From contig JAKSPM010000001.1 of assembly GCA_024404825.1 (NCBI GenBank), positions 1 to 60,370 of the forward strand: a stretch of 60,370 bases of DNA. The letters run 5' to 3'. Shown piece after piece: positions 3,813 to 60,208 of this stretch. A program made the position numbers and the translations under genes. Numbering within the stretch: position 1 is the stretch's first letter; the number at the start of each line of letters is the position of its first letter. The notes under the pieces are model-generated. The model was not told the origin of the DNA and ran no database searches. It worked only from the letters and a program-made list of their open reading frames with translations. The DNA comes from Clostridia bacterium (lineage in GTDB: Bacteria; Bacillota; Clostridia; Oscillospirales; Oscillospiraceae).

Positions 3813-6197
3813 ATGAATATTTCGAGAAAATGGCTCAAAGAGTTTGTGGACATCGAAGCCACAGACCGTGAATATGCTGAAATCATGACCATCGCCGGTC
3901 AGAAGGTAGAATCCTATGCCCGGATGGACGACGAGATCAAGAATGTCGTTGTCGGTAAGGTCTTATCCATTGTCCGCCACGAAAATTCCGACCATATGTG
4001 GGTCTGTCAGATCGACATCGGAGAAAACGAGCCCGTGCAGATCGTCACCGGCGCGCAGAACGTCCATGAGGGTGACCTTGTTCCCGCCTGCCTGCATAAC
4101 AGTTACCTGCCCGGCGGCGTTCATATCACCAAGGGCAAGCTCCGCGGTGTGCTTTCCTGTGGTATGCTATGCTCCTTTGCAGAGCTCGGTCTGACGCAGA
4201 ACGATGTCCCCGGCGCTTATGCCGACGGCATCTGGATCCTCAATGACGAGGACTGCCATGTCGGTCAGGACATCAACGAGGTCATCGGCAATAACGACAC
4301 CATCGTTGAGTTTGAAATCACCAACAACCGCCCCGACTGCTACAGCCTGCTCGGCCTGGCACGTGAGACCGCAGCTGCGTTCAATGTTCCGATGAAGCAC
4401 CATGAGCCGGTCGTGAAAGGCGGCGGCAAGGGTAATCTTTTCGAGCTGCTGGATGTGGAAGTCGAAGCGGACGACCTTTGCAAGCGCTACTGCGCAAAGA
4501 TGGTACGCAATGTTAAAATCGAGCCGTCTCCCAAGTGGCTGCGTCAGCGTCTGCGCTCGGCAGGCATCCGCCCGATCAACAACATCGTTGACATCACGAA
4601 CTATGTCATGGTCGAATACGGCCAGCCGATGCACGCATTTGACTACCGCTATGTCAAGGGCGTCAAGATTATTGTCCGCCGCGCAGGTGAAGACAAGGAG
4701 CTGACCACGCTCGACGGCAATGTCCGTGCGCTTACCCCCGATATGCTCGTTATCGCAGACGAGACCCGCCCTGTGGGTCTTGCCGGTGTCATGGGCGGCG
4801 AAAATTCCGAGATCGCAGACGACACCGTGGATGTTGTGTTCGAATCCGCAAACTTTGACGGTACCTCCATCCGTAAAACTGCGCTCGCCCTCGGTATGCG
4901 TACCGATTCTTCGGCAAAATTCGAAAAGAACATTGACCCGATGCTGACCCTGCCCGCTGTCAACCGTGCGTGTGAGCTCGTAGAGCTGCTCGGAGCAGGC
5001 GAAGTGCTCGACGGCATCATCGATGTGATCAACTATGTTCCCGAACCTTACGAAATGCCCCTGGAGCCTGAAAAGATCAACGCCCTGCTCGGCACAAACA
5101 TCTCCACTGAAGATATGATCGAATATCTGCGCCGCGAGGAAGTCCCCGTGGAAGGCATGACGATCAAGGTCCCGTCCTGGCGTCCCGACCTGCGCAGAAT
5201 GGCTGACATTGCAGAAGAAGTCGGCCGCTTCTACGGCTACAACGAAATTGAAACCACCCTCATGCGCGGTGCAACGACCCGCGGCGGCTACTCTAAGTCC
5301 CAGCTTTTGGAAAATGCCGCAGGCGCTACGGCAAGAGCCCTCGGCTTCAATGAGATCATCACCTATTCGTTCGTCTCCCCGAGCATCTTCGACATGGTGA
5401 GAGTTCCTGCCGATTCTCCCCTGCGCAACACCATCAAGATTCAAAATCCGCTCGGCGAGGACACCTCGGTCATGCGTACCATCGCCCTGCCCTCCCTGCT
5501 GGATATTTTGAGTCGCAACTATGCACATCACAATAAGTCTGCAAAGCTTTATGAGCTGGCAAAGATTTACCTTCCCAAGGACGGCGAGCCTCTTCCCGAA
5601 GAACCCAAGCGCTTCCTGCTCGGCTCCTACGGTGCAAAGGAGACCTTCTTCTCCCTCAAGGGTGAGGTGGAGGCTCTGCTGGACGCACTTAATGTCAAGG
5701 AGCATGAATATGTTGCCATCACCGACCATCCGAGCTATCATCCCGGCCGCTGTGCCGCTTTGATGATTGACGGCAAGCAGTATGGCATCCTCGGTCAGAT
5801 CCATCCTCTGGTGGCGCAAAATTACGGCATTTCCGATGAAATCTTCGTAGCGGAGCTCGACTTTACCGAGCTGCAAAGCGAGCTTGCCGACGAACGCACC
5901 TTCAAGGCACTTCCGAAGTTCCCGTCCGTTGCACGTGACCTTGCCGTTGTCTGTGATGAAGCGGTCACCGTTGCGGCACTGGAAGGGTGCATCAAGTCTG
6001 CTGCCGGAAAGCTTCTCAAGGGTATCAACCTCTTTGATATCTACCGCGGCACCGGCATCCCCGAGGGCAAGAAGTCTACCGCATTCAGCCTCGTGCTGCG
6101 CAGCGATGACCACACCCTGACAGACGCCGACATCGACCCCGTTATGGAAAGCGTTCTCAAGGCCTTGGCCGAAAAACTCAACGCCGTTTTGAGATAA
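3813..6197 (+). CDS. pheT: phenylalanine--tRNA ligase beta subunit
   Basis: 794-aa ORF immediately after pheS. It has an N-terminal tRNA-binding domain (MNISRKWLKEFV), B3/4 and B5 regions, and a C-terminal FDX-ACB-like domain. Confidence 0.92.
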   Translation: MNISRKWLKEFVDIEATDREYAEIMTIAGQKVESYARMDDEIKNVVVGKVLSIVRHENSDHMWVCQIDIGENEPVQIVTGAQNVHEGDLVPACLHNSYLPGGVHITKGKLRGVLSCGMLCSFAELGLTQNDVPGAYADGIWILNDEDCHVGQDINEVIGNNDTIVEFEITNNRPDCYSLLGLARETAAAFNVPMKHHEPVVKGGGKGNLFELLDVEVEADDLCKRYCAKMVRNVKIEPSPKWLRQRLRSAGIRPINNIVDITNYVMVEYGQPMHAFDYRYVKGVKIIVRRAGEDKELTTLDGNVRALTPDMLVIADETRPVGLAGVMGGENSEIADDTVDVVFESANFDGTSIRKTALALGMRTDSSAKFEKNIDPMLTLPAVNRACELVELLGAGEVLDGIIDVINYVPEPYEMPLEPEKINALLGTNISTEDMIEYLRREEVPVEGMTIKVPSWRPDLRRMADIAEEVGRFYGYNEIETTLMRGATTRGGYSKSQLLENAAGATARALGFNEIITYSFVSPSIFDMVRVPADSPLRNTIKIQNPLGEDTSVMRTIALPSLLDILSRNYAHHNKSAKLYELAKIYLPKDGEPLPEEPKRFLLGSYGAKETFFSLKGEVEALLDALNVKEHEYVAITDHPSYHPGRCAALMIDGKQYGILGQIHPLVAQNYGISDEIFVAELDFTELQSELADERTFKALPKFPSVARDLAVVCDEAVTVAALEGCIKSAAGKLLKGINLFDIYRGTGIPEGKKSTAFSLVLRSDDHTLTDADIDPVMESVLKALAEKLNAVLR

Positions 6198-12852: not shown

Positions 12853-12925
12853 CCGTTGATTTTCAAGCCTTTTCCGAAGCATCAGCAAAGCAATGCCCGT
12901 GAAAACCGGCTTGGGTTCGACTCTC
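12853..12925 (-). repeat. intergenic copy of a motif also found inside the 529-bp element (57939-58015)
   Basis: The reverse complement reads GAGAGTCGAACCCAAGCCGGTTTTCACGGGCATTGCTTTGCTGATGCTTCGGAAAAGGCTTGAAAATCAACGG. Its core CGGTTTTCACGGG..GCTGATGCTTCGGAAAA matches 57956-57994 at 35 of 39 positions. Confidence 0.7.
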
Positions 12926-30256: not shown

Positions 30257-30369
30257 ACAATTAAAGATTGATAGCTGTAACGAAGTGCTGCGCGCACGGG
30301 CTTCCAACTATCACTTAGGCGTTGCTTGAGTGGAGTTATTTTGACATAGGGTCAAAATGGCTCCTTTTT
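30257..30369 (+). promoter_or_regulatory. structured 5' leader with intrinsic terminator (riboswitch or attenuator candidate; class not recognised)
   Basis: A 45-nt stem-loop closed by TGATAG (30269-30274) and CTATCA (30308-30313), with inner pairs GAAG/CTTC and GTGC/GCAC. A competing hairpin TCACTTAGG/CTTGAGTGG (30311-30334) follows. The terminator is GGAGttATTTTGAC-atagg-GTCAAAATggCTCC plus TTTTT (30332-30369), 31 nt before the ssnA ATG. Confidence 0.45.
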
Positions 30370-30400
30370 GTTTCGCTAAGACTAAAGGAGGTTTCCAACT

Positions 30401-31759
30401 ATGTATTTACTCGCAAACGGCAGACTCATCACCAGAGATCCGTCCAATGGCTACATCAAAGACGGCGGTGTTGTCATTGACGGCACCAAAATCAAGGAAG
30501 TCGGCTCGACCGCTGATCTGAAAGCAAAATATCCCAATGCGGAATTCATTGACGCAAAGGGCGGCGTGATCATGCCCGCTTTCATCAATGCACACACCCA
30601 CATCTACTCGGCGCTCGCTCGCGGCCTTTCCATCAAGAGCAATAACGCTGACAATTTCTACGATGTTCTGGACAAGCAGTGGTGGGCAATCGACCGCAAG
30701 CTCTACATGGGCGGCACGAGAGCTTCTGCAAATGCCCTTTACATCGACTGCATCAAGCAGGGTGTTACCACCGTATTTGACCATCACGCATCTTACGGCG
30801 AGATTCCCGGCACACTGCACACAATCGCCGAATCTGCAAAGAAATTCGGCATCCGTTCCTGCCTGTGCTACGAAGTCTCCGACCGTGACGGCGAAGAAAA
30901 GTGCCTGCAGGGCATCAAGGAAAACGCTGATTTCATCACCGAATGTGAAAAGAACAAGGACCCGATGCTTGCAGCCATGTTCGGCGGCCACGCCCTGTTC
31001 ACCATCTCTGACAAGACCTTTGAGCGCATGGTCGAAGCCAACAACGGCCGTACCGGCTACCATATCCACGTTTCCGAAGGCTGGAACGACGTTTACGACT
31101 CCATTCAGAACTACGGCAGACGTCCGGTTGAAAGGCTGCGCGATCATGGCATTCTCGGTGAAAAGACCATCCTCGGTCATTGCATCCACGTAACAGACAA
31201 GGAAATTGACCTGATCCGTGAAACCGGCACAATGGTCGTCAACAATCCCGAATCCAACATGGGCAACGCTGTCGGCACCTGCCCGGTACTTCCCCTCTAC
31301 AAGAACGGCATCCTGCTCGGCTTGGGCACTGACGCCTACACCAACGATATGCTGGAATCCATCAAGGTCGCTCTGATTGCGCAAAGACAGAACGCAGAGC
31401 TTCCGAATGTCGGTTGGTGCGAAGTGACCGATATGCTGTTCAAGAACAACGCAAAGATCGGTGCAAAGTACTTCCCGGATGAACTCGGCGTTCTCAAAGC
31501 CGGCGCTGCCGCTGACGTGATCGTCATGGACTACAAGCCATTCACCCCGTTCTCCGACGCCAACATCGACGGCCATATGATCTTCGGTATGACCGGCCGC
31601 CAGTGCATGACCACCATTGCCAACGGCAAGCTGCTGATGAAGGACCGTGAGCTTGTCGGCATCGACGAGGAAGCAGAAAATGCTTACATCCTCGAAGAAT
31701 CCAAGAAGCTTTGGGGCGATCTGAACGGCTGCAAATACTCTGCCGACGGTGAATGCTGA
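30401..31759 (+). CDS. ssnA: putative aminohydrolase SsnA
   Basis: 452-aa amidohydrolase (FINAHTHIYS, HIHVSE, LGHCIHV, GLGTDA) immediately upstream of ygfK, as in the E. coli ygfK-ssnA neighbourhood. Confidence 0.7.
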   Translation: MYLLANGRLITRDPSNGYIKDGGVVIDGTKIKEVGSTADLKAKYPNAEFIDAKGGVIMPAFINAHTHIYSALARGLSIKSNNADNFYDVLDKQWWAIDRKLYMGGTRASANALYIDCIKQGVTTVFDHHASYGEIPGTLHTIAESAKKFGIRSCLCYEVSDRDGEEKCLQGIKENADFITECEKNKDPMLAAMFGGHALFTISDKTFERMVEANNGRTGYHIHVSEGWNDVYDSIQNYGRRPVERLRDHGILGEKTILGHCIHVTDKEIDLIRETGTMVVNNPESNMGNAVGTCPVLPLYKNGILLGLGTDAYTNDMLESIKVALIAQRQNAELPNVGWCEVTDMLFKNNAKIGAKYFPDELGVLKAGAAADVIVMDYKPFTPFSDANIDGHMIFGMTGRQCMTTIANGKLLMKDRELVGIDEEAENAYILEESKKLWGDLNGCKYSADGEC

Positions 31760-34945: not shown

Positions 34946-34963
34946 GCAACCATCCTGAACTGA

Positions 34964-34997
34964 AAACAGGAGCCTGAAATCAGGCTCCTGTTTTTCA
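34964..34997. repeat. left copy of a 34-bp direct duplication; it is the intrinsic terminator hairpin of ygfK
   Basis: GAAAACAGGAGCCTGAAATCAGGCTCCTGTTTTT is identical (34/34) to 35249-35282. Confidence 0.9.
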
Positions 34998-35248
34998 GAC
35001 TGTCAATAAACCCCGAAACCGTCAAAGTCGAGAGTCGGAACGAGGCATTATGCACCGAATATCGTTTGACGAGAATCGTACCATCGCAACACATCCAAGC
35101 CCGAAAAGGCTTGCTGCGCAAGGACTTTGACTTACTGCGCAACTCTCACTCTACCGTACCTATGTACGCCTACGAGTGAGAGTTGCTTGTCTTTCAGGCT
35201 TTCTTGACCGTCTGCCAGCGTGTCAAAAAACTTTTTTGACACGCTGGA
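34998..35248 (-). mobile_element. 251-bp non-coding repeat element (short variant); MITE-like with imperfect terminal inverted repeats
   Basis: It starts CAGACTGTCAATAAA and ends TTTTTTGACACGCTG. The reverse complement matches 57830-57929 plus 58213-58358 with 2 substitutions and one loop indel. Strand is given relative to the long copy. Confidence 0.75.
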
Positions 35249-35282
35249 AAACAGGAGCCTGAAATCAGGCTCCTGTTTTTTT
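35249..35282. repeat. right copy of the 34-bp direct duplication (second terminator hairpin)
   Basis: Identical to 34964-34997. Confidence 0.9.
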
Positions 35283-57795: not shown

Positions 57796-57829
57796 ATAAA
57801 AACGGCTCCGATCTCGGAGCCGTTTTTTA
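57796..57829. repeat. left copy of a 34-bp direct duplication (terminator-type hairpin)
   Basis: ATAAAAACGGCTCCGATCTCGGAGCCGTTTTTTA is identical (34/34) to 58359-58392. Confidence 0.9.
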
Positions 57830-58358
57830 CAGCGTGTCAAAAAAGTATTTTTTGACACGCTGGCAGACGGTCAAGAAAGCCTGAAAGACAAGCAACTCTC
57901 ACTCGTAGGCGTACATAGGTACGGTAGAGAAAGCCGAGGAGAGCTGTCCCTAAGTCGGTTTTCACGGGTGTCGCTTCGCTGATGCTTCGGAAAACTCCTT
58001 GGAAATCCATCAAGGATTCCCTGCGTCGTTTTGCTTGCCTCAACAAACCGACACTCCGGGAAAACTGCTTCGCATCTGTGAGCGAGTAGTTTTGGAGAGA
58101 TTTTCGGTGCGGCGGACGTAGCCTTGCTGACGCAAGGCAAGGACAACAAGCCGAAAATCACCCAAAAGAGCCACTCACAGACGATTTGGGGTCAGCTTTC
58201 CTCGGCTTTAGCTGCGCAGTAAGTCAAAGTCCTTGCGCAGCAAGCCTTTTCGGGCTTGGATGTGTTGCGATGGTACGATTCTCGTCAAACGATATTCGGT
58301 GCATAGTGCCTCGTTCCGAATCTCGACTTTGACGGTTTCGGGGTTTATTGACAGTCTG
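57830..58358 (+). mobile_element. 529-bp non-coding repeat element (long variant) with a 283-nt central module
   Basis: It starts CAGCGTGTCAAAAAA and ends TTTATTGACAGTCTG (15-nt imperfect TIR, 12/15). The first 33 nt form a perfect palindrome. The outer parts match the reverse complement of 34998-35248. There is no credible ORF. Confidence 0.75.
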
Positions 58359-58392
58359 ATAAAAACGGCTCCGATCTCGGAGCCGTTTTTTA
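58359..58392. repeat. right copy of the 34-bp direct duplication; it is the intrinsic terminator of the M3 peptidase gene
   Basis: Identical to 57796-57829. It lies 1 nt from the stop at 58394. Confidence 0.9.
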
Positions 58393-58393
58393 T

Positions 58394-60208
58394 TTATTTA
58401 AGGGCATCTTCGAAATACGATTCCAGGTAATTTACTCTGTCATCATCAAACGGGGAGGTCATTCCCGTCCTATCGAGAAGTTCAAGGAAGTCAAGCTCGC
58501 CGGCAAGCTCGATCATCTCCATATATTTATCCAGGCCGTCGCCCTTCTGCTGATCCTCTAAGGAGAAAATCTGAAGTGCAACATCGGCGGAGGTACAGTA
58601 GCTTATGATATAATCCGGTGCAATGAAGAAGTGGTTGATATCAACCCAGACCTGCTTATTATACCAGTCCATGCCGTAAGCATACATGCCGTAATCGCGT
58701 ACGACATCTGCATAAGTGTCGTTGATTATGTCAACCGTTATAGTGTCGGGATCCAGTTGATACACACGATCCTCAAAATCTGCATACATGCCCTGATAGA
58801 CGAAGACTTCAAGCAGATCGAGCAGCTTTAAGGTCTTCAGGCGTTCAACCGTTTTCTTGTCAAAGTCGCTGTAGCTCAAGGCAATTGCTTCCATTGCCTG
58901 CGAGAAAATTTCGCACTTATCCAAAGAATCGTCTTCGTTGTCGTTAATCATGGAATCGGAGAAATGTCCGAATTCATGCGCAAGCGTCATAAAATCAGAT
59001 TCTGTTCCGGTAGGGCTTATGTAAACAAAAGGTTCTGCGTAGGTCGGCAGATATGTCTCATAGGAGCCGGACATTTTGCTTGACGATTCCGTAGCATCCC
59101 ACAGTTCAAAATATTCCATGAAGGAGAAGAATTCATAGAAGGTTGCGTCATCTGCAGCAGAGTCGATCCGGTACAGCGCGCGCTTCAGTGTATCGATCAC
59201 CGTGTCAAAATCCATATCGTCATATTCCAGGTTGACCTCATCGGAATATCGCAGTGACATATACAAAGGTGCAAGCTCATCACAGATTTCTTCAATGTAT
59301 TCGCGTGCCATCTGCGGGGTATAGTCTCTGCCATAGTTATATTCGTAGGCGAAATCCGCATAGGAATCATAGCCGACGGTCTTTGCCATCGCCTGTCGGG
59401 TCTGCACAAGCTGCACATAAATCTCGCCCATGGACGCATTGTATTTTGCAAAATACGCCGGGTAGATACTGTTATATAATGTGTTGTAGTCCCCTTCGTA
59501 TTCTTCCATCAGATCGTCCAGAAGGCACTCCTCGCCGTTAAACATGATCGTTTGGTTTTCCTGCAGCTGCATATAGTCGGTCTGCAGCTTGGCCTCCTTC
59601 TGCGCAAGCTTGACAAATTCATCGTTGGTATAGATGTCGTGTTCAAGGTAGAAGTCAAGGAAGTTATCACCAAAATACTCTTCTTCTAACATTTCTTTGT
59701 CGGGACATTCCGCAGCAGCCTCGTAAAGAAGCTCTAACGCCTGCTGAATGAGCGGAGCCTGGTTTTCCAGATAGTCGTATTCTTCCTTGTAGAAAGTGTC
59801 GCTGAGATTTTCACAATAGCAAATATAGGAAACGGAATCCATCGTGGAGAACTCATCAGAATACGGCTCGAGCGCATAGATCGCGTCCAAAATCTCTTCG
59901 CCGGTGGCACCCGATTTGATGAGCGCCGTGGTATCATTGATTTCGGCAATCAGCCTCTGCACATCCGGCCGCTGATATTCGATCTCGGAAAAAGCAACCG
60001 CATCAGGATATGCAGACGGATCAAAATCATCCGGAAGCTCGATCGGCTCCGGAGAATCCGTCGGCTTCGGAGAATGCGTCGGATCAGGAGAATCCGTCGG
60101 CTTCGGGCGTTCGGGGTCGTCGGACGGACGAATCACCCAATTACAGCCTGTAAACAGCAGGCTGAGACACAAAACAAGTGCGGAAAGGCAAAGAAGTTTT
60201 CTTTTCAT
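58394..60208 (-). CDS. M3-family oligoendopeptidase-like zinc metallopeptidase, lipoprotein
   Basis: Lipobox LLFTGC, a Pro/Thr/Asp-rich linker, and the zinc motif TLAHEFGHF. 604 aa. Confidence 0.7.
   Translation of the reverse strand: MKRKLLCLSALVLCLSLLFTGCNWVIRPSDDPERPKPTDSPDPTHSPKPTDSPEPIELPDDFDPSAYPDAVAFSEIEYQRPDVQRLIAEINDTTALIKSGATGEEILDAIYALEPYSDEFSTMDSVSYICYCENLSDTFYKEEYDYLENQAPLIQQALELLYEAAAECPDKEMLEEEYFGDNFLDFYLEHDIYTNDEFVKLAQKEAKLQTDYMQLQENQTIMFNGEECLLDDLMEEYEGDYNTLYNSIYPAYFAKYNASMGEIYVQLVQTRQAMAKTVGYDSYADFAYEYNYGRDYTPQMAREYIEEICDELAPLYMSLRYSDEVNLEYDDMDFDTVIDTLKRALYRIDSAADDATFYEFFSFMEYFELWDATESSSKMSGSYETYLPTYAEPFVYISPTGTESDFMTLAHEFGHFSDSMINDNEDDSLDKCEIFSQAMEAIALSYSDFDKKTVERLKTLKLLDLLEVFVYQGMYADFEDRVYQLDPDTITVDIINDTYADVVRDYGMYAYGMDWYNKQVWVDINHFFIAPDYIISYCTSADVALQIFSLEDQQKGDGLDKYMEMIELAGELDFLELLDRTGMTSPFDDDRVNYLESYFEDALK

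Follow-up and report, generated by a model that had tools for sequence, protein, structure and literature searches.

The window analysed here (60,370 nucleotides [nt] of a Clostridia bacterium of the Oscillospiraceae; assembly GCA_024404825.1, contig JAKSPM010000001.1, positions 1 to 60,370) carries a 529-base-pair (bp) segment that is a non-autonomous transposable element of the MITE (miniature inverted-repeat transposable element) type: it is small and non-coding, has terminal inverted repeats, is flanked by a target duplication and belongs to a set of dispersed copies. The segment at the terminator of an M3-family oligoendopeptidase gene is a real insertion with a 34-bp target-site duplication, and the duplicated sequence is the terminator hairpin itself. 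The MITE is probably mobilised in trans by a DDE transposase, most likely of the IS1182 family, that would join the element to the feet of the target hairpin and leave gap repair to duplicate the hairpin whole.

The 34-mer ATAAAAACGGCTCCGATCTCGGAGCCGTTTTTTA has exactly two occurrences in the window, at 57796-57829 and 58359-58392 (chance expectation 0 in 100 shuffles). These two perfect copies enclose the 529-nt segment at 57830-58358, which starts with CAGCGTGTCAAAAAA and ends with TTTATTGACAGTCTG. The gene-proximal copy (58359-58392, minus strand) abuts the left, single-site end of the element and lies 1 nt from the stop codon of a 604-amino-acid (aa) open reading frame (ORF) at 58394-60208 on the minus strand; it folds as a hairpin with a 13-bp stem and 2 unpaired nt at each edge (-21.5 kcal/mol). 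The gene-distal copy (57796-57829, minus strand) is identified by the exact repeat, the fold and the empty site described below. The ORF resembles M3-family oligoendopeptidase models at scores below the curated cut-offs (NCBIfam M3_not_pepF, E = 2.7e-56). An earlier note on this DNA had reported both the perfect 34-bp copies around 529 nt and the position of the right-hand copy 1 nt from the peptidase stop codon; exact searching and the ORF coordinates confirm these observations.

Filled and empty sites could be compared for the 529-bp copy. A look-up of the identical M3 protein led to L034, a contig of a near-identical strain from another sample, in which the M3 gene is followed by a single hairpin (L034 1918-1951) and the same downstream genes, with no element. 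Window positions 60309-58359 match L034 1-1951 at 100% identity, and positions 57829-55000 match L034 1918-4747 at 99.97%; the overlap of the two flank alignments is exactly the 34-bp hairpin. Because the alignments overlap by the hairpin only, the two sites differ by the 529 bp and one additional terminator copy, both present at the filled site. The insertion is recent, since the two element copies in the window are ~98% identical and the flanks of the empty site are 99.97-100% identical.

The other copy in the window, of standard size (251 bp; 34996-35246, plus strand), has the opposite genomic orientation and matches nt 1-148 joined to about nt 430-529 of the 529-bp copy at ~98% identity; its internal hairpin is intact (35140-35185). 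On either side of it stands another perfect 34-bp hairpin, unlike that of the 529-bp copy, present at 34962-34995, 16 nt past the stop codon of a 982-aa oxidoreductase gene, and again at 35247-35280 (both plus strand). The alignment bears out the earlier description of the two segments as sharing termini in opposite orientations; the unrelated 34-bp hairpin around the shorter copy was also rightly recognised, although its coordinates (34964 and 35249) were 2 nt off. No second empty site was obtained: no alternative contigs were found for the genes flanking the 251-bp copy, and the contigs anchored on SpoIVA stop inside the hairpin, an assembly break at the repeat.

Further copies were collected by scanning for the 33-nt palindrome that forms the right end of the element, so the presence of this palindrome in the copies found is by construction. 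The element is present at 33 loci (26 from species-representative genomes and 7 from metagenomes); the named sources are gut metagenome-assembled genomes (MAGs) of Oscillospiraceae, Faecousia or unclassified Clostridiales, and human-gut metagenome assemblies, and a single MAG holds at least 10 element loci. The usual size is 248-255 bp, with a range across copies of 161-529 bp. At each locus with both flanks present, the element was delimited and its flanks were compared, which yielded 25 independent insertions with a duplication.

All 25 sites have flanking direct repeats, different in sequence at each site, and every duplicated sequence folds as one stem-loop across essentially the entire repeat. 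The duplications measure 20-41 bp (13 distinct values, median 29), and their length follows the span of the stem-loop (r = 0.955), with no more than 2 unpaired nt at the 5' edge and 3 at the 3' edge. The first base of the duplication is a purine in 24 cases and the last a pyrimidine in 24. Mean folding energy per nt is ~5 times that of random window segments of equal lengths. All but one of the hairpins have an ORF whose 3' end is within about 50 nt (mostly within 25 nt) on one side or both, and many sit between convergent genes: the targets are terminator-type hairpins. The one apparent exception in the census, L016, is located at a contig end.

Together with the empty site, these 25 different hairpins, each duplicated whole, uphold the proposal of the earlier note that the two window copies are independent insertions into unrelated terminator-type hairpins, and they strongly support its idea of symmetric action at the hairpin edges. 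The identical 34-bp length, which had been taken as a property of the mechanism, does not survive the census: a fixed 34-bp ruler is ruled out by the 13 different lengths and, because length varies with stem-loop span, the two window copies agree at 34 bp by coincidence, their terminators being of similar size. The flanking repeats are not part of the element, as they differ at every site, and a local tandem duplication is ruled out by the empty site and by the constant element junctions. A strict orientation of the element relative to the upstream gene was likewise dropped: the two window copies agree with it, but several other sites adjoin only a convergent gene.

The ends of the element are built from a 15-nt motif, CAGNNTGTCAANAAA, present once at one end and three times at the other (8 matches in the window against 0.87 expected). 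As terminal inverted repeats, CAGACTGTCAATAAA and CAGCGTGTCAAAAAA are identical at 12 of 15 bases; read as a pair, the element termini are CAGNCTGTCAA…TTGACNGNCTG. In the 529-bp copy, the 148 nt of the left end (58211-58358, minus strand) are common to the 251-bp copy and include the 15-nt terminus CAGACTGTCAATAAA at 58344-58358. The right end is a perfect 33-nt palindrome of two inverted terminus copies, CAGCGTGTCAAAAAA-GTA-TTTTTTGACACGCTG (57830-57862). A third, subterminal inverted copy, CAGACGGTCAAGAAA (57864-57878, plus strand), follows after a 1-nt spacer, its tip abutting that of the palindrome. Next to it stands the conserved right-end body kept in all copies (57879-57929, minus strand), which contains the 3' arm of the internal hairpin and the apical motif GTAGGCGTACATAGGTACGGTA (57905-57926, plus strand). 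The 161- and 165-bp variants (L024 and L026) have nothing in common with the standard element except the left terminus (15 nt) and the palindrome (33 nt), and these two are therefore the essential cis sites. The ORFs within the element are short and unconvincing; the element is non-coding.

The remaining 281 nt of the longer copy (57930-58210, minus strand) form a module with its own inverted termini, AAAGCCGAGGA(A/G)AGCTG. It is absent from the 251-bp copy and from the standard copies of ~250 bp, and it takes the place of the 5' arm of the internal hairpin. Its predicted fold, a closing stem with two long hairpins, has an energy of -136 kcal/mol (z = -8.9). A 59-nt stretch of the module recurs at 83% identity at window positions 12858-12915, within the 87 nt that separate two minus-strand genes, and the module may be a second, nested small repeat family. 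Two other copies (L027 and L031, 432-434 bp) are interrupted at this internal point by a different insert. In the copies that have it intact (35140-35185 and its equivalents in L001-L031), the internal hairpin has a 13-bp basal stem in which 11 pairs are kept by two-sided changes across 15 copies (CAACTCTCACTC/GAGTGAGAGTTG versus CAAACACAAGCC/GGCTTGTGTTTG, for example), together with a conserved, asymmetric internal loop and an apical stem, CGTAC/GTACG, that does not vary. This pattern suggests a constrained DNA or RNA structure, a signal of selection that template-switch 'palindrome correction' could mimic. An Rfam scan of the element returned no family at gathering thresholds, and the sub-threshold matches were at chance level. 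With no Rfam family, a known ribozyme, intron or guide RNA was dropped as an identity for the 529-nt segment; inspection for group II intron boundaries found none.

In the mechanism proposed, a DDE transposase supplied in trans, most likely of the IS1182 family, would bind the 15-nt termini, and one 3' end of the element would be joined to each foot of the palindrome, on opposite strands and 5' of a purine. The target would most simply be in hairpin or cruciform form, in which both feet are adjacent; in linear DNA, the two joins would be 5'-staggered, as far apart as the palindrome is long. Host repair of the gaps would then copy the entire hairpin onto both sides. The structure of the target, and not the enzyme, would set the duplication length (20-41 bp), and both neighbouring transcription units would retain a terminator.

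The best family match, IS1182, had not been named in the earlier note, and it rests on hairpin targeting by IS1272 and on similar termini. In staphylococci, IS1272 and its derivative TnSha1 (IS1182 family) target hairpins, mostly confirmed terminators, with no primary-sequence specificity, and their insertion causes partial deletion or replacement of the stem-loop without duplication (PMC4923244, PMC5678879). The 2015 review of insertion sequences (IS) by Siguier et al., as quoted by both IS1272 papers, states that some IS1182 members target palindromes, giving no detailed data (PMC4923244, PMC5678879). IS1272 thus differs from the MITE in deleting or replacing a stem-loop that the MITE keeps whole and duplicates, and in being autonomous (transposase of 548-560 aa) where the MITE is non-coding. 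The terminal repeats of the two are related, GAGTC(T/C)GGGACATAAA in IS1272 (read from L037) and CAG(A/G)CTGTCAATAAA in the MITE, and both systems have extra copies of the end repeat (IS1272L; the triple site of the MITE). Wan et al. (2017) modelled IS1272 insertion as attack at the 3' feet of a cruciform, and noted that attack at the 5' feet would duplicate the whole stem-loop (PMC5678879, Fig 13 pathway b). Pathway b is there a hypothetical alternative to the behaviour of IS1272, for which no natural example was noted; the MITE family gives 25. Hairpin targeting in the IS1182 family and a model predicting duplication are already published; whole-hairpin duplication by an IS1182-like MITE, cleanly replicated here, was not found in the literature searched.

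For a comparison of termini, the IS1272 transposase of plasmid pST75 (reached via fabI/TnSha1) was turned into a profile, which retrieved 52 IS1182-family loci in viral contigs; IS1182 was absent from pRUM and from a staphylococcal aadE-sat4-aphA-3 plasmid. The IS1182-family proteins examined carry Pfam domains PF05598 and PF13751; a cognate transposase would be expected to have these, with or without PF01609. Twenty complete elements have ends with a common core, (G/A)GGCTG(T/G)… followed by an A-rich stretch (for example GAGGCTGTCTCAAAAT, GGGCTGTCCCAAAAGT and GAGGGTGTGTCAAAAGT), to be set beside the MITE termini CAG(A/G)CTGTCAATAAA and CAGCGTGTCAAAAAA. With a matrix of 39 IS1182-family ends and the register fixed at the tip, the MITE termini rank in the top 0.005-0.13% of window positions, and at best 10-11 of 15 bases agree with a single family end (null P about 0.002-0.009). 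Likeness of the termini to the IS1182 family is moderate evidence, supportive and not decisive. Several of the 20 complete elements have short inverted extensions in their flanks, as expected from a split palindrome. In an abundant gut relative whose ends (GGGGCTGTAAAAAAA) are closest to those of the MITE, A-rich sequence prevails in the left flanks and T-rich sequence in the right flanks, as would be expected had the insertion replaced the GC stem-loop of an A-tract/T-tract terminator. The MITE thus has IS1182-like termini and a terminator preference, but the opposite outcome, duplication. As a separate observation, many IS1182-family ends (L090-L099, L040-L086) can fold as a small terminal hairpin, such as GGCTG-TAAAAAAA-CAGCC or TGTGTCA-AAAG-TGACACA, and these fold-backs echo the 33-nt terminal palindrome of the MITE.

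Several results weigh against assigning the MITE to an IS1182-type transposase acting on extruded hairpins. The similarity of the termini is significant yet modest, and in vivo, cruciform extrusion is unfavourable for short GC-rich palindromes. A flanking direct repeat of at least 10 bp is absent from all 20 complete IS1182-family elements, and the 7 sites of the gut relative (among 10 contigs) that can be read at both ends likewise have no direct repeat. Because full-length elements show no direct repeats, whole-hairpin duplication is not the usual outcome in this sample of the family; the non-duplicating relatives would make the MITE a variant, still compatible with membership because the family is reported to be heterogeneous. 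ISfinder reportedly lists the family with direct repeats of 0-60 bp, in which case its curators would already have met long, possibly palindromic duplications there. Two loci, L025 and L009, carry different hairpins on their two sides. A tblastn search with the IS1272 transposase, covering the window and all 33 element-bearing loci, found nothing and no IS1182-like coding remnant; an all-versus-all comparison of ORFs across the loci gave no recurrent transposase, the recurrent families being ABC transporters, two-component systems and amidohydrolases; and three large protein searches, which reached only Bacilli, Bacteroidales and one further gut clade, gave no partner.

Other searches for the enzyme had similar outcomes. 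Housekeeping functions account for all window ORFs with a family match (PheRS, ATP synthase operon, SpoIVA, PriA, a PASTA kinase and CdaA among them), and five further ORFs matched nothing; none of the ORFs gave a match to a transposase, integrase, Cas1 or HUH family. The earlier statement that no enzyme gene is present in the window accordingly holds as far as it can be tested, the absence of an IS1182 remnant included. Scans of genome, metagenome and viral collections with terminal-palindrome patterns returned MITE copies or nothing, the left-end pattern had no match in viral contigs, and a blastn search of plasmids had none. MAG assemblies usually lose IS copies. The main gap of the argument is that no transposase is linked to the MITE termini in the window, at the 33 loci or through the protein searches.

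It is unlikely, though worth serious consideration, that the same structure-sized, 5'-staggered mechanism with gap repair is carried out by a DDE transposase of another family, the likeness of the termini to IS1182 being convergent or coincidental. Such a transposase would fit the lack of a linked IS1182 transposase in the window, at the 33 loci and in the protein searches, as well as the lack of duplications around the full-length IS1182-family elements sampled; moreover, the MITE tip begins with C where all 39 family ends have G or A at the start of the core, and the window's own termini rank just in the top 0.02-0.13%. Against this, the core (A/G)GGCTGT…AAAA of the terminus, in fixed register at the tip, points to IS1182, and the use of unrelated terminator hairpins as target is an independent pointer to the same family, having been described for IS1272 as novel to IS elements (PMC4923244). 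A broader reading is doubtful, if a little less so: a transposase would use DNA secondary structure as a ruler, accepting any terminator-type hairpin, presumably extruded as a hairpin or cruciform in vivo, and joining at its two feet, and within one family the choice of 5' or 3' feet would lead to duplication (the MITE) or deletion (IS1272). In its radical version, the enzyme would be an undescribed structure-specific integrase, not of the IS1182 family, encoded elsewhere in these genomes.

The analogies drawn in the earlier note fare less well. A Cas1-type integrase (casposase or Cas1-solo; for casposon integration, see PMC5137440) that duplicates a palindromic target, as in CRISPR spacer integration, is an extremely improbable source of these insertions. 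The formal likeness is real, in that both involve symmetric nicks at the borders of a ~30-bp palindrome followed by duplication, and no evidence obtained here goes further than that likeness. On the other side, the observed duplications vary from 20 to 41 bp with the hairpin, no cas1 or integrase gene is present among the window ORFs, and the element termini match a DDE family. Casposon duplications are fixed at about 14-15 bp, and the CRISPR repeat duplication is fixed within an array. An HUH/Y1 transposase (IS200/IS605-like, or of the RAYT type linked to REP sequences [repetitive extragenic palindromes]), or a template-switching accident of replication at stalled hairpins, is also very improbable. 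Hairpins are central both at the target and at the element end, and copies of a flank can differ in a palindrome-aware manner (an inverted loop in L017, compensatory changes in L002), a kind of change that template switching at quasi-palindromes typically leaves. HUH elements lack terminal inverted repeats and target duplications and instead have subterminal hairpins and a fixed target tetra- or pentanucleotide, whereas the MITE has 15-nt terminal inverted repeats and exact duplications. The junctions always involve the same element bases (CAG… …CTG) whatever the flank, which excludes a microhomology-driven insertion; template switching may explain the later differences between flank copies. 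The terminal inverted repeats, the structure-dependent lengths and the absence of any such gene nearby thus count against both the Cas1/casposase and the HUH analogies, and the long duplications of IS1634-like elements are not known to be structure-sized either.

The proposed insertion through a DDE transposase of the IS1182 type can also be set beside other known systems. MITEPye1 of Paracoccus yeei, with ISPye18, is a MITE attributed to IS1182-family transposases: like the element described here it is small and non-coding, has IS1182-like terminal repeats and is presumed to be mobilised in trans, but it has 4-bp direct repeats, and hairpin targeting is not reported for it (PMC11578231). CRISPR spacer integration by Cas1-Cas2 and casposons share with the MITE nicks at palindrome borders and a duplicating gap filling, but their duplication length is fixed by the enzyme or the repeat and their enzyme fold is different; membership in this group was rejected on the variable 20-41 bp length and the lack of cas genes in the window. 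The IS1202 group and the IS1634 family, which are DDE insertion sequences, resemble the MITE in the unusual length of their target duplications; that length is constant within a subgroup (about 27 bp, for instance) or erratic, and is not known to follow a target stem-loop. REP-targeting IS elements have been described (PMC1525189). They and class C group II introns are like the MITE in using terminators or extragenic palindromes as safe insertion sites. Class C introns and REP-targeting elements (IS1397, IS110 family) insert beside or inside the hairpin, with none or few bp duplicated, by unrelated mechanisms. Phrase searches of the literature on terminator or hairpin duplication by IS elements found no published hairpin-sized duplication and no report of a duplication equal to hairpin length; a lead on Nezha/ISNpu3 was uninformative.

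Some sites have features of their own. At several, the two copies of the duplicated hairpin differ in ways that follow the palindrome: L017 has an inverted loop (AATTC versus GAATT), a compensatory change from G:C to T:A is present in L002, the flanks of L028 belong to the same class, and L015 and L031 have a more perfect palindrome on the right than on the left. Such differences suggest that fold-back or template-switch synthesis took place while the gap was repaired or afterwards. L020 (33-504) holds a tandem of two elements, their tips abutted across 1 nt, with a single 25-bp hairpin duplication around the pair; the first element has no terminal palindrome, as if this had been replaced by the second copy in an IS1272-like outcome, which hints that one system may both duplicate and replace. 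In L007, the 33-nt palindrome stands alone at about 4220-4252, ~20 nt past a histidine-kinase gene, with AGTGC on both sides. In L009 (836-3917), the left and right element ends are 3.1 kb apart and the flanking hairpins differ. By eye, this interval contains a cytidine/blasticidin-deaminase-like ORF with a GNAT fragment fused to it, alongside a flavodoxin-like ORF, an alpha/beta hydrolase and part of a serine recombinase; these genes are cargo-like, with no transposase in the interval, and L009 is a possible composite, cargo-carrying transposon. Elsewhere in the window, an ssnA RNA motif (Rfam RF03031, 62 bits) at 30265-30312 lies upstream of the SsnA aminohydrolase gene (30386-31756), an ordinary and expected association.

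Duplicated terminators around repeats of ~250 bp also matter for annotation and assembly, as they break short-read contigs: contigs end repeatedly inside the element or the duplicated hairpin (L100 and L101, at about window position 35251, and L011, L013, L016, L020 and L021), several of them MAG contigs. If the proposed mechanism is true, the MITE family would be a natural example of a duplication length set by the secondary structure of the target, for which no documented case was found in the searchable literature; the hypothetical branch of the IS1272 model would become testable, and the duplications would report in vivo on how hairpins or cruciforms are recognised at terminators. The insertion is also self-insulating: the upstream gene retains a terminator, and the element is fenced off from the downstream genes. 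This may explain how the family has spread in compact gut-bacterial genomes at little damage.

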